Shown here piece after piece: positions 7,242-56,392 of a stretch of DNA of 64,000 nucleotides. Origin of the DNA: an uncultured Chlamydiae bacterium (GTDB lineage Bacteria; Chlamydiota; Chlamydiia; Chlamydiales; SM23-39); assembly GCA_963730605.1 (NCBI GenBank), contig CAVSSM010000002.1, forward strand, positions 224,001-288,000, written 5' to 3'. The notes under the pieces were generated by a model that saw nothing but the letters and a program-made list of their open reading frames with translations, did no database searches and had not been told where the DNA came from. Both the position numbers and the translations under genes were made by a program. The first letter of the stretch is position 1, and each line of letters starts with the position of its first letter.

Positions 7242-8465
7242 ATGACATATAATCCCGTTATAGGAATTGGAACCGGTGCACCAGGAATGGGAGCCGCTGC
7301 CCCCCAAGATTTTTTTTCACCATTGCCCGAGTTGCCAATGGAGCTCATCCAGTCATTCTTAGGTCCAAAAAGCAACGATGCCCTCTCGCGGACAAATACA
7401 AGACTACGCGCGGTTTCATGCCCTTTTAGAGCCGCCGTTCTTCGCTTTGAATACAAAATTGCAGAGAACAAACCCATTACCCTACAAGAGCTAATAGAAC
7501 TAAAAAATCTCAATCCGGATTTTTCAAGTAGAATACCATTCAAACTTGATTTATCAAACAGCAATATTTCTGATGTCGGGCTGCAAGAGCTTATTGTATG
7601 CTTTCCTAATATTATTGAAATTAATGCACAACACTGTCAGGGTTTAACCGATGCCGGGCTGCAGCACCTGGCACATTTGAAAAATCTCACAAGCCTCGAC
7701 TTGACAGAATGCACCCAGGTCACCGACAACGGACTGCAGTTCCTGGCAAGTTTGATAAATCTCACAAGCCTCAGCCTGGAGGGATGCTCCCGGATCACCG
7801 ACGTCGGACTGCGGTGCCTGGCAAGTTTGAAAAATCTCACCACCCTCAACCTGGCATGGTGCCGCCGGATCCCCGACATCGGGCTGCAGTGCCTGGCAAA
7901 TTTGCCAAATCTCACTAACCTCAGCCTAGCACAGTGCACCCAAGTCACCGACATCGTGCTGCAGAGCCTGGCAGGTTTGATACATCTTACAAGCCTCGAC
8001 CTAGAAGGGTGCCACCAGATCACTGACGGGGGGCTGCGGCACTTGGCAGGTTTGATAAATCTCATAAGCCTCAACCTGACATGGTGCCCCAAGATCACCG
8101 ATACCGGGCTGCAGTACTCGGCAAGTTTGAAAAATCTCACAAACCTCAGTCTGAAGGGGTGCAACCGGATCACCGACAACGGACTGCAGTTCCTGGCAAG
8201 TTTGATAAATCTCACAAGCCTCAGCCTGGAGGGATGCTACCAGATCACCGACGGGGGGCTGCGGTACCTGGCGGCAGGTTTGGCAAAGCTCACACGTCTC
8301 AGCCTGAAGGGGTGCTTCCAGGTCACCAACATCGGACTGCAGCACCTGGCAGGTTTGGCCAAGCTCACAAGCCTTGACCTGTCAGAATGCCAACAGATTA
8401 CTGACGCCGGGCTGCAGTGCCTGGCAGGTTGTCGTATTATCCGATTTTTCGGTGTGTTCAGATAA
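7242..8465 (+). CDS. F-box/LRR (FBXL-like) effector
   Basis: LPELPMELIQSFL F-box-like motif plus many ~25-aa Cys-containing LRRs (ITDxGLxxLAxLxNLTSLxL). Confidence 0.88.
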   Translation: MTYNPVIGIGTGAPGMGAAAPQDFFSPLPELPMELIQSFLGPKSNDALSRTNTRLRAVSCPFRAAVLRFEYKIAENKPITLQELIELKNLNPDFSSRIPFKLDLSNSNISDVGLQELIVCFPNIIEINAQHCQGLTDAGLQHLAHLKNLTSLDLTECTQVTDNGLQFLASLINLTSLSLEGCSRITDVGLRCLASLKNLTTLNLAWCRRIPDIGLQCLANLPNLTNLSLAQCTQVTDIVLQSLAGLIHLTSLDLEGCHQITDGGLRHLAGLINLISLNLTWCPKITDTGLQYSASLKNLTNLSLKGCNRITDNGLQFLASLINLTSLSLEGCYQITDGGLRYLAAGLAKLTRLSLKGCFQVTNIGLQHLAGLAKLTSLDLSECQQITDAGLQCLAGCRIIRFFGVFR

Positions 8466-21269: not shown

Positions 21270-23401
21270 ATGGCATCCATAACACCAACTAAAACTTACG
21301 AATACAAATTTCAGTCGCCGGCCCAAAGTTACATTGGTCAAAACAGCAGACAGGATCTTCCTAAGCAAAATTTGAACGGTAGAGTCAACGCTCTTCCTCC
21401 AAAAACGAATCGAATTCCGTCGTGTGGGTCACACCGGTTTGTTATGCAACTCTGATCCTAGCCGCCGGAATGGGAATGATGGCTTTGTTGGGCAATCCAG
21501 GTGCCAATCCAACTCCTAATCCTAAACCATCGCCAACTCCAACTCCCATGCCTAATCCAACTCCAACTCCAAAGTCATCGCCATCTCCAACTCCCATGCC
21601 TAATCCAACTCCAACTCCAAAGTCATCGCCATCTCCAACTCCCATGCCTAATCCAACTCCAACTCCCAAGTCATCGCCATCTCCAACTCCATCGCCAACG
21701 CCGTCTCTAACTCCCCTCTCTCCAGATGCTAACGCCAACATCGGCGTCTCCGTTACAACTTTCAATTCCAAGCTCGATGCCACTTCTGAGAACGACATCA
21801 ATGCAAGAATATATAAGTTGGGCGGGGACAATGTAGGTTCTATGAATTCCTTCGGATTCCCTTCGTATAATCAGTCGCATTTTTGCTTAGTTGAGGGAAA
21901 TGCCTCTACATTTCCAACTCTAGAATCAAGCGCATCTCCAACACCGGTTCCTTCTTCGAACTCACTACTAGTACTGTCGCCGATAGCATCGACTACCGAG
22001 TTCCCGATTTCGAGTGAGCCAAACCCGACACCGATACAAACACAACAAACGCAGTGGACCAAGAATGTCTTGGGGGTAATCCTTCCTGAATCCCTCGGGC
22101 ATGATGTGACACTTGCGCCTTGTGCAGCAAATGTAGCTGCAGTAGCCATAATTCCAACTCCAACTCCCAAGTCATCGCCATCTCCAACTCCAACTCCAAC
22201 TCCCATGCCTAATCCAACTCCAACTCCCAAGTCATCGCCATCTCCAACTCTCATGCCTAATCCAACTCCAACTCCCAAGTCATCGCCATCTCCAACTCCC
22301 ATGCCTAATCCAACTCCAACTCCCAAGTCATCGCCATCTCCAACTCCCATGCCTAATCCAACTCCAACTCCCAAGTCATCGCCATCTCCAACTCCCATGC
22401 CTAATCCAACTCCAACTCCCAAGTCATCGCCATCTCCAACTCCCATGCCTAATCCAACTCCAACTCCCAAGTCATCGCCATCTCCAACTCCCATGCCTAA
22501 TCCAACTCCACCGTCGCTATCGCCAATGGCTCTAACACCCGTGCCAACGCCGGAGGCGAAGCCATCGTCAACTCCGGTAGAGCCAACAAAACAAAAAGAA
22601 GAATCTTCCTTCACAGATCCTCGGCACGTTTTTATAAAGGAGACGGCCATGAATGGCGATCCCTTTTACATGGACCTCATTGTAAGCTACTGGAAAGAAG
22701 GGACCATTTCTTCTTCAGACGAAGAGAAATCTGTCATTATAAATGCTTTTCACTCAAATCTCTTAAAGCAAGCCAGGCAAGGCTACCCTATCGCTATGAA
22801 TAGATTACAATCCCTTTGGAAGGATGGGACGCTTTCCGCTTCAGAAGAAGAAAAATTGTCCATCAGGACTGATTGTAATGCAGTCACACAGCAGAACTTT
22901 GAAAAACACCTCAAAGTAAATGCCATGAATGGCGATCCCTTTTACATGGACCTCATTGTAAGCTACTGGAAAGAAGGGACCATTTCTTCTTCAGACGAAG
23001 AGAAATCTGTCATTATAAATGCTTTTCACTCAAATCTCTCAAAGCAAGCCAGGCAAGGCTACCCTATCGCTATGAATAGATTACAATCCCTTTGGAAGGA
23101 TGGGACGCTTTCCGCTTCAGAAGAAGAAAAATTGTCCATCAGGACTGATTGTAATGCAGTCACACAGCAGAACTTTGAAAAACACCTCAAAGTAAATGCC
23201 ATGAATGGCGATCCCTTTTACATGAACCTCATTGTAAGCTACTGGAAAGAAGGGTTCATTTCCTCTACAGACCAAGAGATAGCCGCCATCAGAGACGCTT
23301 GCGACCGGGCAAGAGGGAAAAAGTATTCCAAACCTTGTATTTCTTCTTCAGATGAAAGGGAATCTACCATCAGAGATGCTCACCTGGCAACCTCAATGTA
23401 A
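21270..23401 (+). CDS. Pro/Thr/Ser-rich repeat effector-like membrane protein, apparently frameshifted near 21420
   Basis: ORF 21270-21455 overlaps ORF 21422-23401; one hydrophobic segment; 16-aa and 92-aa repeats. Confidence 0.65.
21500..21700 (+). repeat. 48-bp tandem repeat, block 1 ([16 protein letters not shown])
   Basis: Near-identical units visible in DNA. Confidence 0.9.
22153..22510 (+). repeat. 48-bp tandem repeat, block 2 (about 7 units)
   Basis: Near-identical units visible in DNA. Confidence 0.92.
22646..23253 (+). repeat. 276-bp (92-aa) tandem repeat, about 2.2 copies
   Basis: gccatgaatggcgatccc recurs at 22646, 22922 and 23198. Confidence 0.92.
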
Positions 23402-44361: not shown

Positions 44362-44967
44362 TCAAAAAACCTCCAAATCAAGAACATCCAACTTCCCATC
44401 ACCGTTTAGATCAGTAGCAGACAAAGTGCCCTTGTTTTCATGAATTTCATAGAGCAATTTAAGATATTTACCAGCCACTAAACGCGGCAGCTCATCTTTG
44501 CGCTCTATCCCGTACCATTCATAGATCCCTTTGCTACCTTTTGAAGAGTTGCATCGACGACATGCCCAAACATGATTTTCAGCCGTATCCGTGCCATTTT
44601 TCACACGAGGAACAAGATGATCCCATGAGAGATTCTCTGTCGATCTACAATATTCGCAGCAAATTCCATCACATGACATCTGCATTTTTAGTTCTCTCAG
44701 AGCTGCGCTCATTTTTATCTCTCCAGACGCGAGCATTGTCATCTTGCTCATGATGAATCCATGACCATGAATCCCGGAGGATGCAGCAATGATCTTTGCG
44801 TACTGGTAAAAGATCAGATCTTTGATATACCGCGCCCGCTTAGGTTGTGTGAATTTTGACAGCAGATTTTTGGCTCCAGTAGCATTGCGGAGATCGAGTC
44901 CAACTTGCACAATGTTAACGAGATCGAGCAATGCGCTGGAGCAAAAAAGATGCTCAACAAAATTCAC
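44362..44967 (-). CDS. HNH endonuclease (start uncertain)
   Basis: CEYC..DHLVP..G....N...AC..CNSSKG. Confidence 0.85.
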   Translation of the reverse strand: MNFVEHLFCSSALLDLVNIVQVGLDLRNATGAKNLLSKFTQPKRARYIKDLIFYQYAKIIAASSGIHGHGFIMSKMTMLASGEIKMSAALRELKMQMSCDGICCEYCRSTENLSWDHLVPRVKNGTDTAENHVWACRRCNSSKGSKGIYEWYGIERKDELPRLVAGKYLKLLYEIHENKGTLSATDLNGDGKLDVLDLEVF

Positions 44968-45012
44968 TCAAGATAAGCGGGCGCGGTATAGTTTTAACGG
45001 CTGAAGGAGGCA

Positions 45013-45612: not shown

Positions 45613-45873
45613 AAGACTCCATAAAATAATGAAAGACTGAATGATTCTAAACAAAAACAAAAAAGATGATCAACTCAAATAAATTATTTCCATTTGAACT
45701 ATTTCCATTTTTGAAACAGTTGCTTCCAGGATGAGTTTCTGGCTTATTTTTTAAATGCCTTGAGAGCAGAAGGACCTGGGACGCCCTCTCGCAGCGCTCC
45801 GCGCTTGCTGCCGGGCCGGCGATCTAGCGCCCTGCAGGGCGCTTCGATTCGAGTCCTCCACGGAAGCCGCGCA

Positions 45874-45923
45874 GGGGGCGGGCGGACTAGAACCGCCGAA
45901 GACCGAAGTCGGGGGATTTACAG
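45874..45923 (-). repeat. Divergent tRNA-Tyr 3' half (distal att copy)
   Basis: Matches 56312-56361 except for T-arm region substitutions, four of them forming two compensatory T-stem pairs. Confidence 0.85.
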
Positions 45924-46154
45924 ACGGATGGAATACAATCTCAACCAATGATTATTCACGCTTATCAACTTGAAAATCAGAATATTGATCACAATAAAGA
46001 GTTGACGACTATTGTTAAAAATTGGGTAAAATAATCTATTGCTGTCCCATTTTTGTCCCACCAGCCCCTGACCTCTCCCTCTTGCTAGGCCCAAGATTCC
46101 AAAGGAAATTTTGCGCATAGCATTTACACAAAAACTCTAAATGAACTAGACTAA

Positions 46155-46164: not shown

Positions 46165-46181
46165 GACCAGACCAGGTGAAT

Positions 46182-46478
46182 ATGAAAACTAAACCTTGCT
46201 CAAGAAGAAGGCTTAGCCATCGCAAGAGACATAAAAAATGGCAAGTCCAGGAAGCAAAATCAAAGTTTTCTCAATTGATCAAGGAAACAGCTTCTTCTGG
46301 ATACCAAACAATTACAAAAAATGGCGAAACTGTTGCCTATGTTGTTTCTAAAGAAGACTTTGAGATGTATTTGAAGCCTCAGAAATCGCTTCTTGAAGTT
46401 TTAGACCAATGCCCGTACCCAGAAGTCGATTTCGATACCAAGCGAAGAACGGATACGATTAGGGAAATCGATTTATGA
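46182..46478 (+). CDS. Phd/YefM antitoxin
   Basis: WQVQEAKSKFSQLI...QTITKNG. Confidence 0.9.
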   Translation: MKTKPCSRRRLSHRKRHKKWQVQEAKSKFSQLIKETASSGYQTITKNGETVAYVVSKEDFEMYLKPQKSLLEVLDQCPYPEVDFDTKRRTDTIREIDL

Positions 46479-46915
46479 CCTATCTACTCGATACATGTAC
46501 GATTTCTACCCTGAGAAAGAAAGGAACTTCTGAAGGAAAGAAATTAAGAGAGTGGGTATCAAGGATGGAAGATCGTTTTTTTTTCATAAGCGTTTTGACA
46601 ATTGGCGAACTCCTATTCGGAATTTCCAAATTGAGTGAAAAAGAAGAGAAAATAAAAAACGCTTTGCAAAATTGGCTCGTGGGCGACCTCATCCCTAGTT
46701 TCGGAAATAGAATTTTGTCTATCGATCAACAAATTTGCTCTATTTGGGGTGATATGACCGCTCAGGCGGCTAAAAAGGGAGTTATTCTCCCAATGGGCGA
46801 TGCCCTAATTGCTGCAACTGCGATCAAATATGATCTGATTGTCATCACCCAAAACACCAAACACTTCAAATCTTCTGGAGCTCGTCTTTTCGATCCTCTC
46901 ATCCACCATCCATAG
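46475..46915 (+). CDS. vapC: VapC PIN toxin
   Basis: YLLDT, ISVLTIGEL, DALIAATA, TQNTKHF; ATGA overlap with the antitoxin. Confidence 0.92.
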   Translation: MTYLLDTCTISTLRKKGTSEGKKLREWVSRMEDRFFFISVLTIGELLFGISKLSEKEEKIKNALQNWLVGDLIPSFGNRILSIDQQICSIWGDMTAQAAKKGVILPMGDALIAATAIKYDLIVITQNTKHFKSSGARLFDPLIHHP

Positions 46916-47452: not shown

Positions 47453-48715
47453 ATATTTGTTCAGGGGGTATAGCAGGGCTGGCTAAAAATGGTGGGGGCC
47501 GACGAACCTGTTTTCCAGGCGCCTAGGGCTTCCACAAGATAATCTAAACATTTCTTCCCCTGATGCTTCAGGGTAGTTACAACAGTATTGGTCCTCTCGA
47601 TGAACCGATCGCCACGTTCGCTTTTGGAACCGTAGCTAACTCTACGGGTAATCACGATCCCTCTTAGATCCCTTTCAGCCTGATTGTTCGTTGGCTCTAC
47701 GCCATCTCGAGTGGCAAAAATCCACAGATTTTGCGCCCTCCGCAAGAGAGCTCGGGCGAACCGTTTGAGGGAGGCGCTATGCTTGCCTTTCGTAGATGCA
47801 ACCAGTAGCCCATATGCAAAATCATCTCGGTACTGCCTGCTTTTGCGTCTAAATGAACGCCGGCTTCTCCGTTTTTCCCGGTAGTCTCGCCAGAGTTCGA
47901 AGATCGTTTTGAGATATTCTAGCATCACTTGGCCCCACTCGCCATCGAGACCTGCTCGCTCGGCAAAACGCTTTATGTCCCGTTTGAGATGAGCAAGACA
48001 GAACTGATGTGGCCACTGGAAGCGATAAATTGCTAACCTGTCAGTAACGAAGGCTACACGTTTTGTTGCAGTAGTGCCTAATAGGGCATCTCTGCATTCG
48101 GCTCCTCTCCCTTCCTGGATCTTGTACACGGCCCCGGATGCAGTGGACATAATCCATACAAATGCTCGTTTTCCCCAGCATTTCCAACCTGTTTCTTCAA
48201 CATGTTTTGTTTCGTTACTACCATGCACCTGCTTTTCGATCTCTTCGTACGATGGCTTAAGAGCGGCTGACATACGATTTTCTATATTGCTCTGGGTTCC
48301 AACTGCTGCTCGAAGATCGAGCCCTTCTTGCAGGATGCTTAATGCAATCCGACGGCTTAGTCGGCATGTACCAGTCAGGAACCCCATGAAGGCAGACAGT
48401 CGTGTTCCAAATGCCGATGGGCCGACATGGCTGGGAAGTGGGGCTACCCCATCTTTTTTCTTGGGGGCATCATTCTTGCCTTTTTGGTCCGTTGAGGGTG
48501 GCTTGGAACTGTTTTTGGAATTGAGGTTGATCTGTTCTTTCAAACGGGCATTTTCTTCACGTAGTCTGGAGTTTTCGACCTTGAGCGAGGCCACCTCACT
48601 ACGGAGCAATCGAATTTCTGTGAGCAGCTCTTCGTAACTGGCGTTCATGCTGTTCTAGCTTAGCATGTTGGCGAATATTCACCTAAAAAATTTGCTATAC
48701 CCCCTGAACAAATAC
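47453..48715 (-). mobile_element. IS66-family single-ORF element, probably defective
   Basis: TIR tatttgttcagggggtatagc at both ends; no matching TSD seen. Confidence 0.85.
47461..48648 (-). CDS. IS66 family transposase
   Basis: NSKNSSKPPS, QFCLAHLKRD, EPTNNQAERDLR; Zn-finger segment seems missing and DET reads EET. Confidence 0.88.
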   Translation of the reverse strand: MNASYEELLTEIRLLRSEVASLKVENSRLREENARLKEQINLNSKNSSKPPSTDQKGKNDAPKKKDGVAPLPSHVGPSAFGTRLSAFMGFLTGTCRLSRRIALSILQEGLDLRAAVGTQSNIENRMSAALKPSYEEIEKQVHGSNETKHVEETGWKCWGKRAFVWIMSTASGAVYKIQEGRGAECRDALLGTTATKRVAFVTDRLAIYRFQWPHQFCLAHLKRDIKRFAERAGLDGEWGQVMLEYLKTIFELWRDYREKRRSRRSFRRKSRQYRDDFAYGLLVASTKGKHSASLKRFARALLRRAQNLWIFATRDGVEPTNNQAERDLRGIVITRRVSYGSKSERGDRFIERTNTVVTTLKHQGKKCLDYLVEALGAWKTGSSAPTIFSQPCYTP

Positions 48716-48859
48716 AGACGACCAGTTAAAACTCTAGGCTTGGTAGAGGGGTACATATCGAGGATGTGTTGGATATTACTGTCCCATGAGAGATCCCTTG
48801 GGAGCTTAAAATATACCGAATTTTATCGCGAATTTCGGCCCGTTTTTTCATAGGGAATT

Positions 48860-49426
48860 TGGGGGCGGCCAGACGCCCTCGCGCTGAGCTGCTTCGCAGC
48901 TCATGCTGCCGGGCCGGCGATCCCCCGCGGTTTTTGCAGAGCAAAAAACATCGACGGGGGATTCGAGTCCGCCACGCGACACGCGCAGGCGTGTCGCTCG
49001 CCCCCAAAAAGCAAAAAGCCCCGCGTGAAGCGGGGCTGCTTTTTGGGGGCGGCCAGACGCCCTCGCGCTGAGCTGCTTCGCAGCTCATGCTGCCGGGCCG
49101 GCGATCCCCCGCGGTTTTTGCAGAGCAAAAAACATCGACGGGGGATTCGAGTCCGCCACGCGACACGCGCAGGCGTGTCGCTCGCCCCCAAAAAGCAAAA
49201 AGCCCCGCGTGAAGCGGGGCTGCTTTTTGGGGGCGGCCAGACGCCCTCGCGCTGAGCTGCTTCGCAGCTCATGCTGCCGGGCCGGCGATCCCCCGCGGTT
49301 TTTGCAGAGCAAAAAACATCGACGGGGGATTCGAGTCCGCCACGCGACACGCGCAGGCGTGTCGCTCGCCCCCAAAAAGCAAAAAGCCCCGCGTGAAGCG
49401 GGGCTGCTTTTTGGGGGCGGCCAGAC
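48860..49426. repeat. 184-bp tRNA-linked tandem repeat (3 full units)
   Basis: gggggcggccagac starts at 48861, 49045, 49229 and 49413; units look identical by eye. Confidence 0.95.
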
Positions 49427-49465
49427 TCGAACTGGCGGAGACCGAAGTCGGGGGATTTACAGTCC
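49412..49465 (-). repeat. tRNA-Tyr 3' half copy (att)
   Basis: Identical to 56311-56364. Confidence 0.95.
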
Positions 49466-49719
49466 GCCTAAATCCAATTTAACCCCATCCCTACCAATAC
49501 ATATCAACATAACAATCAGAATCTTGCAGCATTTCTTGGGCTGTTAAAAATTGTTTTGAATTGGTAGCTATTGAACCCTGCTGTCCCACCAATGCCCCGT
49601 GACGCTATTAAAGAAGACTTGAATAACAAGCCCTTTTACGTTACCCTTATTGAAGAAAACTTGAATAACGCTCGATTTTCCAAGCCGTTATTCTCGGATG
49701 CTTGAATAAGGAGCTCTGC

Positions 49720-50853
49720 ATGAGAAGCGGCAGATACATTACACAGCCCAACCAGTATAAAGCATTCATTCCAACAGACCTTCCTCCCGAGCCCCCCATC
49801 CGGATAGAAGGAGAAATGCACGGCCTCCTCACCGACGCCAACATTGCCATTGGAAAACTAGACACCATGGGCTATTTGGCACCGAATCTAAGCCACATCA
49901 TCGCCATGTACGTCCGCAAAGAAGCACTCCTCAGCTCTCAAATCGAAGGAACGCAAGCCTCCTTCGAGGATATTTTTGAATACGAAAGCCAAATCCCCGT
50001 GAAAAACGTGAATGACGTCGAAGAGGTCGTCAATTACATCAAAGCTCTGAACCACGGTATGCAAAGACTCAACGACTTCCCTATGAGCATACGTCTCATT
50101 AAAGAAATTCACGCCATCCTCTTGGAAGGAGTGCGCGGAAAAGACAAAACACCGGGCGAATTCAAAAAAAGCCAAAATTGGATTGGTCCAGCCGGGTCCA
50201 CTCCAAGCACAGCTTCTTTCATTCCGCCACCACCAAAAGAGGCGATGGATGCCATGGGACAACTTGAGCTTTTTCTACACAAAAATTCCAGTATTCCACT
50301 ACTGATCAGCTGTGCGCTTATCCATTACCAGTTTGAGACAATCCATCCCTTTCTCGATGGCAACGGCAGGTTGGGCAGGCTCCTAATCACCTTCTATCTC
50401 TATTGGAAAAAGGCTCTTCAACATCCTACGCTCTACCTCAGTTACTATTTCAAAATACATCGCCAAGAGTACTACGACCGCCTCAACCTCGTCCGCGCCA
50501 AAGGCGATTATGAGCAATGGGTCACCTTCTTTCTCCAAGGCGTCATTTGGACTTCCAACTCCGCCCTACAAACCATCAAAACCGCCCTCCAGCTCCAAGA
50601 AACCCACAAAAAGCGACTCATCACAGCCAAACTCTCTACCCCCTACGCTATTGCCCTCCTTGATTATCTCTTTGAAAAACCCCACCTTTCCATAAAAGAC
50701 GCAGCCACCCACCTCAAAACCTCTTATCAAAGCGCAAAAACGCTCATGCAGCAACTTGTCTCTCTCGAAATCCTCAAAGAAATCACTGGTAAACGCCGCG
50801 ACAAACGCTATAGCTATTGGGAATATTTAGACCTGCTGTCAGAAGGGACATGA
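49720..50853 (+). CDS. Fic family protein
   Basis: HPFLDGNGRLGR, EALLSSQIEGT; AAGGAG RBS; upstream ttgaataa repeats. Confidence 0.95.
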   Translation: MRSGRYITQPNQYKAFIPTDLPPEPPIRIEGEMHGLLTDANIAIGKLDTMGYLAPNLSHIIAMYVRKEALLSSQIEGTQASFEDIFEYESQIPVKNVNDVEEVVNYIKALNHGMQRLNDFPMSIRLIKEIHAILLEGVRGKDKTPGEFKKSQNWIGPAGSTPSTASFIPPPPKEAMDAMGQLELFLHKNSSIPLLISCALIHYQFETIHPFLDGNGRLGRLLITFYLYWKKALQHPTLYLSYYFKIHRQEYYDRLNLVRAKGDYEQWVTFFLQGVIWTSNSALQTIKTALQLQETHKKRLITAKLSTPYAIALLDYLFEKPHLSIKDAATHLKTSYQSAKTLMQQLVSLEILKEITGKRRDKRYSYWEYLDLLSEGT

Positions 50854-51015
50854 ACAGGTTTCTTTTGCTGTCCAATGAATCACAAACTCCGTTTTCCTAG
50901 CTTAGCAGCGCGAAGGCAGCCGATCCGGTTGCTAGTCCGGCATAGCTAAGAGCGCGCGCAGGCGTGTCGCTCGCCCCAAAAAGCAAAAAGCCCCGCGTGA
51001 AGCGGGGCTGCTTTT

Positions 51016-51066
51016 TGGGGGCGGCCAGACTCGAACTGGCGGAGACCGAAGTCGGGGGATTTACAG
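51016..51066 (-). repeat. tRNA-Tyr 3' half copy (att), with adjacent terminator
   Basis: Identical to 56311-56361; ~50953-51015 matches the end of the 184-bp unit. Confidence 0.95.
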
Positions 51067-51952: not shown

Positions 51953-52311
51953 AAGAAAAAGATTTTGTCACCACCGATAATGTTTTTGACGATCTCGGCT
52001 TAGATGATTCTGTCGAAATGATTACTCGATCAGACCTGATGTCGGAAGTTGTTAATCTTATCCGAAAAAGCGGTCTTAGCCAGAAGGAAATCGCTGGAAT
52101 TTTAGGGATTAGCGCTCCTAAAGTATCATCTCTTATGACTGGTAAAATCAATGATTTCAGCAACGACACCCTTTTGAACTACCTCACGTTGCTTGGCTGC
52201 AACATAGAGATCAAAGTTGTGCCTCAACGGAGAATATCCAAGTCGGTCAAAAGAGGAACAATGACGCTGCGAAAACAAAGAGTAAGACGACGAAGTAGGG
52301 CTAGTACCTGA
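51949..52311 (+). CDS. XRE HTH antitoxin
   Basis: NVFDDLG, LSQKEIAGILGISAPKVS. Confidence 0.9.
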   Translation: MKEKDFVTTDNVFDDLGLDDSVEMITRSDLMSEVVNLIRKSGLSQKEIAGILGISAPKVSSLMTGKINDFSNDTLLNYLTLLGCNIEIKVVPQRRISKSVKRGTMTLRKQRVRRRSRAST

Positions 52312-53462
52312 CCACAAAAGTTTTCATGGGTAGAGCCTCTTCATTTTCACTCGCGCATCTGGGATAGCAAATCCCCAAAGGATCTTTGCCCGTCTAGCAT
52401 TTCTATCTGATACATAAGCGGCCACCTCTCTACCGAGAACTTCTTTTGAGCCTATTCGCCTTTTGAGGCACTGACCGCCAAGAACAGAAATTTCAATCTC
52501 TGCCATGTTCAACCAACTTGCATGTTTTGGCGTATGGCGCACCTCTAATTTCTTAATGATCCTCCTGGCTTCTTCGGGCTCAAACGTCTCGTAGAGATTA
52601 GCCAGTCGATGCGTATTCAAATTGTCCATGACAACCCTAATTTTTTCTGCCTCGGGAAAATGTTTGTCCACCAGATCCTTCATGCACTCGGCAAAATCTT
52701 TTTTTGTTCTCTGGTCTGTGACTTTTATTTCCCGCCAGCCTCCCAAGGGCTGTACAAAAACAAAGAGGTTGCTTGTTCCATTCCTTTCGTACTCATAATC
52801 TCGGCGTTTGACTCTCCCTGGCACTGCGGCAATTGGCGCCAACACATCATCTACCAATTGGACTGGTGTTTCATCAAAACACACAACGGGTTTCTTTTCG
52901 TTCAGCGGCTCCTCATATAAATCTAAAACATCTTCCATCCGACAAATATACTCGTAATCCACTTCTGGAACACACCAACTCTTTACTTGCCATGGCTTTA
53001 TTTCGTTTTTTTTAATGTTCTGCGAACCGTTTCGTCCGATATGGAATCTGTCAACTCTAGCGTAATGCAACGATCCGCAAGTAGCTGCATTGTCCAGCAG
53101 GCGCGTCCTTCGGGCGCCTCGCTGCAAGCAAGCGCGATTAAATGGGCTTTAGCCTTTCCAACCATCTTCTCCGGTCTTCCGGATCGCGCTTTTTCATTGA
53201 GTGATTGTTGTAGCCCGTGTTCACAGTAGGCTTTTCTTGTATTGTAAACGCTCACCTCGCTGCACCGTAGCAAAGAGGCAATCTCTTTATCTGGTTTCTT
53301 CTCATCAGCGAATAACAGAGTTTGCGCTCTTCTGATAATCCGCGCGGATGACTTCCCTTTTCTAACAATGTCCTCGAGTTCGCTGCGCACCTCAACTGTG
53401 AGATGAACGGACCATTTTTTGTTCATAGCTGCCTCCAAATGAAAGGCATATATGGAACACTA
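52303..53462 (-). mobile_element. IS630 family element with frameshifted transposase (53438-52998 then on to 52324)
   Basis: HTH orfA; A8 run at ~53006-53013 joins LKK to NEIKPW; DET, DNLNTH, SWLNMAEIE; ends approximate. Confidence 0.88.
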
Positions 53463-53680
53463 TTCAAACATTTTTTTAAAAACTTTAAAATCCTATGGTT
53501 TAGTTAAAGAGCCTCGCTTTGCGGCCTTGCATCCCAAGGCATTTCGCAGTAGCACAACTTGCTCTCTTTAACTCACACTATTTCAGACTGATAGGATTTA
53601 AATAAGACGACCGAATTTAATAGGTCAAAAGACAACCCTTTTCATTGAGAAGAACATCTCAAAAAAAAGAGTCGACGATT

Positions 53681-54910
53681 TTAAATGGGAGACTGTTTTT
53701 TGCCCCGCTTCGGCCTCCATCCGTGCCGCTTGTCAAATTGTGAGCATTCTTTTTTAATCAGTTTTTTAGTGCATGCTTTCTGTATTTCGGGGGCAGCTTC
53801 TTTCCATACGAGCACCCGAATGGAATCGTAAGTGCGCTGTTTTCTTTGTTCACGAGACAGTTTCAGCAGCTCCCGTTCAATTATGGATTGGACAAATTCC
53901 CTTGCCTCATTTTTTAGCTGCTGCGGCTTTTTAAGAACGGGCTCATTTAACATCTCCTCTTCAAGCAAGAGAACAAATCGCTGCACCAACCGCCATAGTT
54001 TATCTCGTGGCACTGGCGCCTTGCCCCAGTCCGCTCCAAAGGCGCTCAGAAACGACTGCAACTGCCATTGACAGCTAAGCTCATCGCAACGAATAAGATC
54101 ATTTGGGAGCGGTCCCACAGGCGTGGGCTTTATTTTGCTAAAATGGGCTATCCGGTCGAGCCAACTGAATGTAGATAACAATGAGCTATCTGTGGCTGCC
54201 TCCCAGTCCTTTTCCGTAGTCGTCCTAAGCAATACCGCGTACTCATCTTCTGGATATTGGATCTTTTGAATCACGCCAAACTTTATGTCGTGGTCAATCC
54301 TGTCTGCCCAATCATTCTTCCGGATCACTGCACTAATAAAGCTGTGTCCTAATTTATCATACAACAGACTCCCTTCCGGAGAATCAGGAAAAACTTCTGT
54401 CGGTTTTTCGACTCGGATAGGCGGCTCATCAAACGATAGACACTCTGCTACCACCCGAACCGTGGCAAAACCATCAAAAATCCTCTCATCACCGTATCTG
54501 GCAACCGAATCGCATACCTGCATAAAATCGTTACACACTCCGTGCCAAAACGAGCCCATAAAAATCAATTCGGGACGTTCACCCTTGAGATACGCTTTAT
54601 ACTCCTGTACGGCCTTGGCGCAAGGCCACCATCTGTTTACAGCAGCCTCTTCTAAAATGTTCACCTTTGACAGCAGCCAATCCATCATGCGCTGTTTACA
54701 AGCCTTCTGTTCCTGAGCCTCTTTCTCTACCGCCTTTGTTAAATCGGCACAGATTTTTGCACTGGGAGGACTCCTCTTAACCTTGTCCATCAATTTCGAT
54801 AGAAGGATTAAAAAGCCCGCTGGACTATCTGCCAATTCTAAAAGGTTAAGTGTGGGAAGAATTTGCTCTCGGAATCGATCAATTTGCACTTGTTTTACCG
54901 TTTTGCTCAT
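53681..54910 (-). CDS. Hypothetical protein overlapping the integrase 3' end
   Basis: ~409-aa ORF; no family recognised. Confidence 0.7.
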   Translation of the reverse strand: MSKTVKQVQIDRFREQILPTLNLLELADSPAGFLILLSKLMDKVKRSPPSAKICADLTKAVEKEAQEQKACKQRMMDWLLSKVNILEEAAVNRWWPCAKAVQEYKAYLKGERPELIFMGSFWHGVCNDFMQVCDSVARYGDERIFDGFATVRVVAECLSFDEPPIRVEKPTEVFPDSPEGSLLYDKLGHSFISAVIRKNDWADRIDHDIKFGVIQKIQYPEDEYAVLLRTTTEKDWEAATDSSLLSTFSWLDRIAHFSKIKPTPVGPLPNDLIRCDELSCQWQLQSFLSAFGADWGKAPVPRDKLWRLVQRFVLLLEEEMLNEPVLKKPQQLKNEAREFVQSIIERELLKLSREQRKQRTYDSIRVLVWKEAAPEIQKACTKKLIKKECSQFDKRHGWRPKRGKKQSPI

Positions 54911-55985
54911 CTGAAACCTCATCTAATAGATTGGCTTGGGTGCGTTCCATCACGTTAGCGATGTGTTTTTTGCTATAGTGACGGTAGCGGACGGTCATGC
55001 GCGGACTGCGGTGGCCGAGAATTTCCATTAGCTCGCCTTGGGAGGCACCGTTCATCGCCATGTGAGAGCAGGCTGTGTGGCGAAGGTCATGGAAGCGGAA
55101 GTCATCGATGTTGGCCTCTTTGGCGGCCTTGATGAAGGCGTGGCGGATGTCCGCGACGGGTTTGTGAGCGCCGAGGCGGCGGGCGGGGAAGACGTAGCCC
55201 TTGCGTTCCTCGCTGTAGGTTTGGCACTCGCGGAAAGTGCGTTCGATTTCATTGATGATGGGGACGATGCGGCTGTCGCCGTTCTTGGTTTCGTGAAGGA
55301 TGACTTGGCGTTGTTCGAAATCGATGTCGACCCATTTGAGGTTGGCGATCTCGCCAAAGCGCATGCCGCTGAGGAGTGCGAGCTTGACGATGGAGTAGAG
55401 GTAGGGATGGGGTGAACGCTTGCACGCGTCGAGGAGGGCGGCGATCTCTTCTTTGTCGAGGAAGCGGCTGCGTCCTTTCGATTCGCTCGGCTTGGAGACT
55501 TTGGTGACGGGATTCTCTTCGATCCACTGCCATTCTTTGACGGCGATGGTGAAGGCTTTGGAAATGGCGGCCAAGTAACGGTTGATGGTGCTGCCGCTTC
55601 GCTTGGTCTCTCGATGGGTTGTGCCCGCGAGGAGTTTGTCTCGCCCTGCAACGATATGGGAGGGCAGGATGTCGGCAAGGAGGAAATGGCCGATTTCATT
55701 GCGCCACCACATGAGGAGCCGCTTTTGCTTGGCGGCGTACTTTTCGTAACGAGGGCACCACTCGGTGATAAAGCGGTCGATCAGCTCGGCGACGTTGTGG
55801 CGCTTGGCCTCGGCCGTGCGGAAATGGCGGCCGTCGCGGATGGCCGACTCGACGTCTTGAATCCATTTCTTGGCGAGCGTCTTGGTGCGGAAGGAGGCGC
55901 GCTGCGGTTTGCTGCCTTTGATGCGCACTTCGGCATGGAAGCTCACTTCCCCGTCACTTTTCACCACTTCTCTAATCGAACCCAT
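54879..55985 (-). CDS. Tyrosine recombinase / integrase
   Basis: SGMRFGE, TKNG, FHDLRH, LGH, RY catalytic residues; next to tRNA-Tyr. Confidence 0.96.
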   Translation of the reverse strand: MGSIREVVKSDGEVSFHAEVRIKGSKPQRASFRTKTLAKKWIQDVESAIRDGRHFRTAEAKRHNVAELIDRFITEWCPRYEKYAAKQKRLLMWWRNEIGHFLLADILPSHIVAGRDKLLAGTTHRETKRSGSTINRYLAAISKAFTIAVKEWQWIEENPVTKVSKPSESKGRSRFLDKEEIAALLDACKRSPHPYLYSIVKLALLSGMRFGEIANLKWVDIDFEQRQVILHETKNGDSRIVPIINEIERTFRECQTYSEERKGYVFPARRLGAHKPVADIRHAFIKAAKEANIDDFRFHDLRHTACSHMAMNGASQGELMEILGHRSPRMTVRYRHYSKKHIANVMERTQANLLDEVSDEQNGKTSAN

Positions 55986-56310
55986 ATGACTCCAACCTTA
56001 AAGGAATGAATATAGCTCCAACTGTATTAAAGAGCAACAGGGGGATGGGCAATCCCCAATCAACCAAGCTAAACAAGACTAATAACCAACGAGATACGAA
56101 GTGCGTAAAATGCACAATACGCAATCCTTACGCAAATGAAGAAAAAAATGCGGAGAGATTGCGATCTGAAAAAGACATAAATGAGGTTGCGGGCGATGCG
56201 ATGCAGTTTTATGCGGTTTCGTTTGGCCGAGTGCGTAAAATTTGCGTAACGGAAGTGCCGGTGGAGGCACTTTTTAGGTCGGATTTTTTGGGTAATTTTG
56301 TCTATGAGAA

Positions 56311-56392
56311 TGGGGGCGGCCAGACTCGAACTGGCGGAGACCGAAGTCGGGGGATTTACAGTCCCCTGCAATTGCCGCTATGCGACACCCCC
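56311..56392 (-). tRNA. tRNA-Tyr(GTA)
   Basis: Cloverleaf with ctGTAaa loop, long variable arm, TTCGAGT. Confidence 0.95.

Follow-up and report, generated by a model that had tools for sequence, protein, structure and literature searches.

Tandem Fold-Back Repeats Behind a tRNA-Tyr Fragment of an Uncultured Chlamydiae Bacterium Point to a Cross-Phylum Variant of the tRNA-Linked Repeats

Introduction

The closest described systems are the tRNA-linked repeats (TLRs) of Escherichia coli, with which papers of Egan and Landy in 1978 and of Rudd in 1999 are reportedly connected. Other systems also involve tRNA ends or folded DNA strands. Islands with a tyrosine integrase that insert at tRNA genes duplicate a fragment of the tRNA as attL and attR, and the attC sites of integrons and the attP site of CTXphi are folded single-strand attachment sites.

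In the main text of PMC8144298, the TLRs of E. coli are described as carrying an 18-19-bp copy of the 3′ end of the gene upstream. Twenty-two of them are counted there, and they are said to have been without known function or origin since 1978 (PMC8144298). The three TLRs of rRNA operons, which are located behind the 5S rRNA (RrA/B/F), are transcribed, processed at the repeated end, and bind Hfq/CsrA (PMC8144298). The words "inverted" and "mobile" are absent from this main text. Raised coverage at tyrT/rttR under stress is reported in a mobilome preprint (10.1101/2024.07.17.603846), where such RNA-gene signals are ascribed to RNA/DNA duplexes, not to circles, and the mode of action is called unknown.

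Structure of the Repeat Array

The window, i.e., the whole stretch of 64,000 nucleotides from an uncultured Chlamydiae bacterium (genome G000) that was analyzed here, contains a tandem array for which the initial annotation had given three 184-bp repeats. This was borne out by Tandem Repeats Finder (TRF), which returned a period of 184, 3.1 copies and 100% matches at 48858-49426. The array and the parts of its unit 3 are the following:

48858..49426, minus strand: tandem array of 3.1 x 184 bp, 100% identical (TRF)
49411-49228, 49227-49044, and 49043-48860, minus strand: the array units
49386..49404, no strand assigned: bidirectional terminator-like hairpin of unit 3 with A- and T-tracts
49367..49374, minus strand: acceptor 3′ strand and discriminator of tRNA-Tyr as an inverted copy in unit 3
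49344..49365, minus strand: hairpin H1 of unit 3, with a 9-bp stem and a 4-nt loop, framed by A and GT
49330..49341, minus strand: inverted T-stem strand and T-loop of unit 3, corresponding to the genus-typical allele and not to the resident one
49243..49329, minus strand: core of unit 3, consisting of hairpin H2 (49289-49329) and stem H3 (49243-49282)
49228..49242, minus strand: final 15 nt of the resident tRNA-Tyr as a direct copy in unit 3

On the tRNA strand, a unit thus consists of an A-tract, the terminator, a T-tract, the inverted acceptor, A, H1, GT, the inverted T-stem/T-loop, H2, H3, and the direct tail. The 22-nt H1 splits the inverted copy of the tRNA 3′ end at the acceptor/T-stem junction, and H3 carries a purine-rich 4x4 internal loop in unit 3. 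As annotated initially, the final 15 nt of tRNA-Tyr close each unit on the minus strand, and the terminator and the four hairpins named at that time were all found in the units. The "T-loop-like" element noted on the plus strand is actually part of the inverted tRNA 3′-end copy.

With RNA or DNA parameters, the inverted arm is predicted to pair with the direct copy, and H1 to branch at the acceptor/T-stem junction. Folding of a 193-nt unit, the check which had been proposed along with the repeats, gave results far better than those of 200 shuffles, with z = -8.1 for the minus strand and z = -9.0 for the plus strand. Each array unit scored 126.6 bits with the covariance model R1, the unit being part of the R1 training set.

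One whole unit and the right junction (49225-49465) are contained in unitig X1 from public soil runs, and the left junction is found in the public unitigs X4 (48787-48996) and X2 (48686-48884), in each case with zero differences. The unit is therefore no invention of the assembly; this support covers a single unit and the junctions, and the triple copy number is as assembled.

Location in a Stack of tRNA-Tyr Islets

The array lies in a stack of tRNA-Tyr islets, in which the following features were identified:

56311..56392, minus strand: intact tRNA-Tyr(GTA) with no element directly behind it
54879..55985, minus strand: tyrosine integrase of the tRNA-proximal island (PF00589, 1e-38)
51016..51066, minus strand: second identical 51-bp att copy
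50954..51015, minus strand: truncated unit with terminator, inverted acceptor, and half of H1, broken at the H1 tip
49702..50853, plus strand: Fic-family gene, carried by the islet that lies between the two identical att copies
49463..49590, no strand assigned: islet arm similar to 45926-46060 and to the arm of a relative, with the common motif TGTCCCA
49412..49462, minus strand: 51-bp att copy from the anticodon loop to the 3′ end, identical to the intact gene, with the array behind it
47454..48714, minus strand: IS66-family element with 22-bp terminal inverted repeats, inside the array-bearing islet
46176..46915, plus strand: Phd/YefM-PIN toxin-antitoxin pair, cargo of the islet with the array at its left end
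45874..45925, minus strand: distal diverged att copy with the genus-typical allele, probably the original chromosomal tRNA 3′ half
45775..45873, minus strand: divergent unit starting inside the H1 loop (R1, 62.8 bits)

The tRNA linkage of the array, as annotated initially, holds insofar as the array adjoins a tRNA-Tyr 3′ half, but this is the att copy at 49412-49462, located 6.9 kb from the intact gene. The tRNA-Tyr call of ARAGORN at 49412-49487 corresponds to this att copy, and Rfam makes no call there. The 51-bp core was found only at 49412, 51016, and 56311. Behind the middle att copy lies the array, behind the upper one the truncated unit, and behind the distal one the divergent unit. The latter, a copy already suspected in the initial annotation, reached its R1 score although it is absent from the training set. 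A Gp49/HTH pair and IS630-like ORFs are also among the islet cargo between the tRNA-Tyr copies. The arm bearing TGTCCCA is a putative integrase arm site.

Several other repeats and mobile elements were observed in the window. A 165-bp element with 33-bp terminal inverted repeats is located at the start of an HNH ORF (44826-44990), and the unitigs of several runs stop at both of its ends, as expected of a MITE. The unitigs show other insertion contexts for the IS630-like element with two ORFs at 52301-53486, and other contexts together with an internally deleted form for the IS66-family element. Coding-type tandem repeats are located at 7655-8430, 21502-22510, and 22646-23279, with listed periods of 75 bp (possibly leucine-rich repeats), 24/48 bp, and 276 bp. 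A short motif containing CATAGA is found repeatedly, directly behind the ends of tRNA-Tyr or tRNA-Leu or behind the last direct copy (window 56290-56310; loci L013, L015, L102, and L365-L368).

Related Elements in the Own Genome and in Chlamydiota

In the own genome, a generic scan gave 12 core matches at 8 loci, which are neighbored by the ends of Tyr, Leu(CAA), Ser(GGA), Ser(GCT), or Met(CAT) tRNAs or by island ends; R1 finds 11 matches. A pattern scan of GTDB returned 60 loci, about half of them matching by chance within GC-rich coding sequence. Those relatives that the pattern scans name belong to the Chlamydiota. Together with 4 loci of relatives, 64 loci were available, of which 30 passed the strict core (4 of these being duplicates). 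ARAGORN places a tRNA-Ser, -Leu, or -Tyr upstream in 26 of these 30, and the other 4 lie at contig edges. A restriction to the class II tRNAs (Ser, Leu, Tyr) was considered and rejected, as other tRNA types also bear the element.

Covariation, on which the initial annotation had made its reading depend, was found. In an alignment of 27 sequences, 93.6% of the cells were paired, compared to 73.0% in shuffled (0 of 500 shuffles reaching the observed value) and 33-43% in slid alignments; the structure had been set by eye on the same 27 sequences, and the motif used for choosing them fixes a few of the core pairs. Two-sided changes occur in 20 of the 33 pairs. The covariance-model search of Chlamydiota that had been suggested gave R1 matches in at least 15 of 151 genomes, distributed over 3 of 27 families, a count which is a floor, with 20 candidates scored per genome.

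All 25 loci examined outside the own genome adjoin a tRNA, a tmRNA, or a 3′ fragment thereof (23 by ARAGORN, two by eye). They add Phe and tmRNA as targets, each element having the arms of its own target. One array consists of seven units.

A second triple array, with a period of 137 bp, was observed in the own genome behind tRNA-Ser(GGA) at L002:9795-10194 (G000:C2 404794-405193). A further unit at L004:6885-7011 (G000:C2 134884-135010) lies 12 kb from tRNA-Ser(TGA), apparently displaced by a serine-recombinase island; L012 and L065 have the opposite order, in which the unit comes first and the island after the direct copy. In some units, extra hairpin modules are nested in the inverted T-loop or in H1 (L024, L032, L042, L048, and L051). 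A different GC-rich fold-back element with common ends and no R1 match is located behind tRNA-Arg(TCT) (L007) and tRNA-Leu(CAG) (L008) of G000.

Related Elements in Other Phyla

The pattern of H1 with the inverted T-loop matched at least 120 loci (about 390 estimated), and a variant of it at least 119 loci (about 210 estimated). Among the matches listed, most loci belong to Patescibacteria, Elusimicrobia, Betaproteobacteria, and Chlamydiota. Nearly all tRNA types are served in Patescibacteria, Elusimicrobia, and Burkholderiales, and the arms usually match the neighboring tRNA. Among the matches listed, 126 of 188 distinct motif hits have the end of a tRNA or tmRNA less than 95 nt upstream, comprising about 20 tRNA types; the other 62, which include fragments, contig edges, later array units, and chance matches, were excluded from the arm counts.

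In 119 of the 126 listed loci, the inverted T-loop variant is that of the cognate tRNA (permuted mean 21%, maximum 31%, 300 permutations), the pattern fixing the general T-loop and the inner H1 stem and not which T-loop variant occurs. The mean number of matches, compared to permuted pairings, is 4.0 of 5 versus 2.8 in the T-stem, 5.8 of 8 versus 4.1 in the acceptor, and 12.3 of 15 versus 8.8 in the direct copy. At least 14 of 15 positions of the direct copy match in 62 of these 126 loci, and the copy begins at position 57 in 69. The frame A-[22 nt]-GT is kept in 103 and is located in 96 of these 4-5 nt from the inverted T-loop, i.e., at the junction or one base from it. That the left arm could be the tRNA's own 5′ strand, as a degenerate direct duplicate, was considered and rejected, because the arm follows the reverse complement of the T-loop variant.

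With the core-only pattern, at least 121 loci were found (about 1200 estimated). A tRNA lies within 260 nt at 60 of the 80 core-only loci examined, and 42 of these 60 have a direct copy of at least 15/17. Cultured Burkholderiales are among the core-only loci with a direct copy. There the direct copy comprises 17/17 positions from position 57 plus CCA, and R1 gave E-values from 9e-9 to 8e-3 on the nine Burkholderiales loci tried. In Paraburkholderia, Burkholderia, and Cupriavidus, the duplicated segment includes the terminator. The word "convergent", used initially, understates the case for a module that is part of a family spanning several phyla. The H1 pattern had 0 matches in viral contigs, the unit matched no phage record, and a search of plasmid records gave one match of 26 nt.

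Comparison with tRNA-Linked Repeats and Attachment Sites

The array shares several properties with the TLR/RtT repeats of E. coli (178-bp rttR units, tyrT-tyrV, RF00391): it is gene-less, capable of tandem formation, located behind a tRNA, and its units end in a copy of the tRNA tail that begins in the T-loop. Regarding position, the units lie behind the tRNA-Tyr 3′-half att copy, and 25 of 25 as well as 126 of 188 related hits adjoin tRNA or tmRNA ends. The tail comprises 15 nt here, where the gene has no encoded CCA, and 18-19 in RtT. The initial annotation had pointed to tyrT/RtT, and this link is right and even closer than stated: at the E. coli tyrT locus (L504), every RtT unit contains a direct 19-mer that begins within the T-loop, and an inverted copy of the tyrV T-arm is also present in the RtT units, with 19 of 24 positions and three times. 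The layout is therefore common to both. The T-loop in the inverted T-arm copy of RtT is altered, a form also observed in L028, L090, L432, L443, L446, and L454.

However, the inverted copy of RtT is not split by an A-[22 nt]-GT hairpin, the core of RtT is unrelated, and the family described here spans several phyla. RF00391 had 0 matches in G000 at the gathering threshold (the E. coli control being positive), R1 gave no match on the E. coli RtT locus at E<=1, and Rfam found no family over the units at the gathering threshold and, at E<=1, only tRNA parts and sub-threshold matches. Judged by sequence and layout, the array module is a cross-phylum and strongly conserved variant of the TLR class with a core distinct from that of RtT. 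No account of the family was found in the literature covered, in which subscription papers are thinly represented, so that Rudd 1999 or the supplements of PMC8144298 may mention the inverted copy. In contrast to a MITE, there are no terminal inverted repeats common to all copies; the termini vary with each tRNA.

Like tRNA islands, the element duplicates a tRNA 3′ end, and the array sits in an islet stack and travels with islet ends. It differs from them by its size of 100-190 bp, the missing integrase, the extra inverted copy, and a junction in the T-loop, compared to the anticodon loop of the local islets. The units might nevertheless be secondary or decoy attachment sites, or folded single-strand sites in the manner of attC or CTX attP, for integrases that target tRNAs. 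The folded strand, as modeled, would rebuild the duplex tRNA tail and thus a duplex target with side hairpins; units are located at att copies here and in the relatives G030, G124, and G142, and L012 and L065 have a serine-recombinase island after the direct copy. Yet the local att cores comprise 51 bp from the anticodon loop, and the units hold only the last 15 nt, so that the bank of decoy sites offered in the initial annotation is unlikely as far as the local islets are concerned. Most of the cross-phylum loci lie amid housekeeping genes with no integrase nearby, and the Ser(GGA) array runs straight into nrdR. By eye, neither attC-type R/L boxes nor a dif-like site were seen in the units, and no recombinase partner was found. 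Taken as a whole, a role as attachment sites is improbable.

Search for a Partner Enzyme

As far as described in passages of PMC3733652 and PMC3116915, REP, BIME, and REPIN-RAYT elements are also short GC-rich palindromes with near-perfect, freely varying stems, which are non-coding, patchy in occurrence, and form tandems. The family described here differs from them in its strict association with tRNA/tmRNA 3′ ends, its target-specific arms, its few copies per genome, and the absent co-occurrence with a Y1 transposase: Y1/RAYT (PF01797) does not track with the element, being present in 7 of 15 carriers and in 54 of 135 other Chlamydiota genomes, and it is absent from two single-contig element-positive genomes. 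The foot of H1 consists of GT followed by tRNA-derived bases, and no fixed tetranucleotide in the manner of the REP tag GTAG/CGTC was seen. The tRNA passages of PMC3733652 deal with protein genes only, and elements at tRNA ends are not described in the accessible text of PMC3184786 and PMC3733652.

The Y1-type content of G000 is limited to a weak IS200/IS605-like remnant, its sole GIY-YIG match is a 608-aa frame away from the units, and 12 integrase matches were found in this genome. Among the 723 ORFs within 5 kb of 80 loci, 35 clusters occurred in at least three loci; judged by eye, none of them was a recognized transposase, integrase, or reverse-transcriptase cluster, and they consist of housekeeping and membrane proteins. 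Three equal-scoring 445-aa reverse-transcriptase frames, which are identical genes, were observed on C1, C4, and C8 of G000 (L362-L364) and are probably group II intron copies.

The missing partner gene, both in the tracking of PF01797 and among the 723 ORFs, agrees with an origin without any dedicated enzyme or function, in which the units would be neutral products of host replication switching templates at tRNA-terminator hairpins. In many cases the inverted arm is an exact continuation of the terminator palindrome, and the mirrored T-loop mutation of L054 (see below) fits such switching as well. This origin has little probability for the family, however, as the A-[22 nt]-GT hairpin is fixed at one position over about 20 tRNA types and several phyla, and the three-way core is conserved. 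A fixed H1 frame together with a conserved core makes independent origin by local switching impossible.

Signs of Movement

At the tRNA-Ser(GGA)-nrdR locus, three units are present in G000 and one or more in G006. The spacer is plain in G002 and G005, and G001 carries an insert of another kind. The sequence right after tRNA-Tyr or tRNA-Ser(TGA) in element-free loci is the sequence found after the last direct copy in element-bearing loci, which makes the distal copy the likely original tail. In Paraburkholderia, two paralogues of tRNA-Leu each have their own tail and terminator duplicated.

Two inverted arms lag behind their location. The inverted arm in the window agrees in 20 of 20 positions with the allele of three out of four congeners and in 18 of 20 with the resident gene, and the T-stem of the congeners' allele, with which it agrees, is also retained in the distal att copy. 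The Ser(GGA) units of G000 bear an inverted arm of the Ser(TGA) type next to a local direct copy, and they are nearly identical over about 85 nt to a unit of G003 at Ser(TGA).

The nearest neighbor of a module was located at the same tRNA of another genome in 12.5 of 40 cases (5.2 by chance) and in the same genome in 7.0 of 40 (1.3 by chance), the kin in these statistics not being independent. Similarity is thus enriched in the same genome as well as at the same tRNA across genomes, so that much of the inheritance is vertical, which speaks against frequent movement. The absence of the element in congeners could be loss rather than gain.

Truncated units are often broken at or near the H1 loop (window 50954 and 45873; L055, L056, L057, L060, and L096), and the H1 loop is a candidate nick site. 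At L054:1955-2120, an att fragment has a mutated T-loop, the inverted copy next to it shows the mirror image of the mutation, and H1 stands at the tip of a perfect palindrome.

DNA or RNA

The loops GNRA, cUUCGg, and C(GNA)G are types which differ in their stability as DNA and as RNA. Among 96 tetraloops of the family, 3 are GNRA and 0 are cUUCGg, and C(GNA)G triloops were counted 22 times on the tRNA strand and seven times on the other strand; by their sequence, the loops look DNA-like rather than RNA-like. In H1 and H3 of the 27-sequence alignment, 139 two-sided changes stand against three one-sided ones, which likewise favors DNA. A.C mismatches exceed G.T on the tRNA strand (23 versus 13 and 12 versus 5). 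The G.T share of the outer H1 pairs in the cross-phylum set (6/141) is not far below that of tRNA stems (60/862), a point in favor of RNA.

Alternatively, the module could be maintained for an RNA. Read-through from the tRNA promoter would yield a folded trailer, cleavage of which at the duplicated tail would release a small RNA like RtT or RrA/B/F or tune tRNA 3′ maturation, and the copies at att fragments would be passive passengers. The strong covariation (93.6% paired) and the topology of acceptor stem and T-stem with a single side arm at the junction are in line with this. The one-sided changes in the closing stem (seven cells) are G.U on the tRNA strand, the orientation of the element always follows that of the tRNA, and the rRNA-operon TLRs of E. 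coli are processed at the repeated end according to the main text of PMC8144298. Against an RNA speak the scarcity of RNA-type tetraloops, the excess of A.C over G.T, and the patchy occurrence with truncated, nested, and seven-fold tandem forms. Moreover, the unit in the window has a core junction in place of an intact T-loop, its discriminator is engaged by the inverted arm, and it does not encode CCA. The RNA trailer is the foremost alternative to the DNA reading, and considering both sides we find it rather doubtful.

For the three copies in the window, transcription from a tRNA promoter is unlikely in view of the sequence, because the att copy lacks the 5′ half, nothing resembling a promoter was seen near the units, and each unit has a leading terminator. 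The tRNA-like structure proposed in the initial annotation is upheld by the covariation and the acceptor-stem/T-stem topology, but its processing into a tRNA-mimic RNA is unsupported for these copies. A mimic matured by RNase P and CCA enzymes, as suggested there, does not fit a unit that has no T-loop, free discriminator, or CCA and that lies with its leading terminator behind a promoter-less att copy.

Discussion

Taking these results together, we lean toward reading the array as a gene-less fold-back element of the TLR type in three tandem copies, i.e., a non-autonomous DNA insert which goes in behind the 3′ ends of tRNAs, with duplication of the tail from the T-loop on. The single strand of such an element would fold by pairing of its inverted arm with the tail copy. 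The unit could be copied in by nick-and-template-switch or by strand transfer near the T-loop positions 57-59, and its insertion would leave the old tail downstream. The inverted arms may later be aligned to the local tRNA by quasi-palindrome correction or by selection. The unit in the window would have come in with an integrase-dependent islet, at its left end, and the triplication may have occurred by slippage or by unequal exchange between the tail copies.

More tentatively, and with less confidence than for the array itself, the family may represent a widespread, target-adaptive mobile DNA. A conserved hairpin scaffold would be set behind any tRNA or tmRNA gene by a putative enzyme, which would open the T-loop, duplicate the tail, and add to the element a mirrored version of the local target. 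RtT would be a distant branch of this mobile DNA, and tRNA islets would ferry units between phyla.

The family provides a testable rule: the cognate tail is present both inverted and direct, the junction lies in the T-loop, and the side hairpin is fixed. The inverted copy also occurs in the RtT of E. coli. From the two inverted arms that lag behind, the order of events can be read. Cultured carriers are found in Paraburkholderia, Cupriavidus, Trinickia, and Pelomonas. The units mislead the annotation of tRNAs and islands and break short-read assemblies. A dedicated enzyme, if it exists, would target every tRNA gene via the T-loop.
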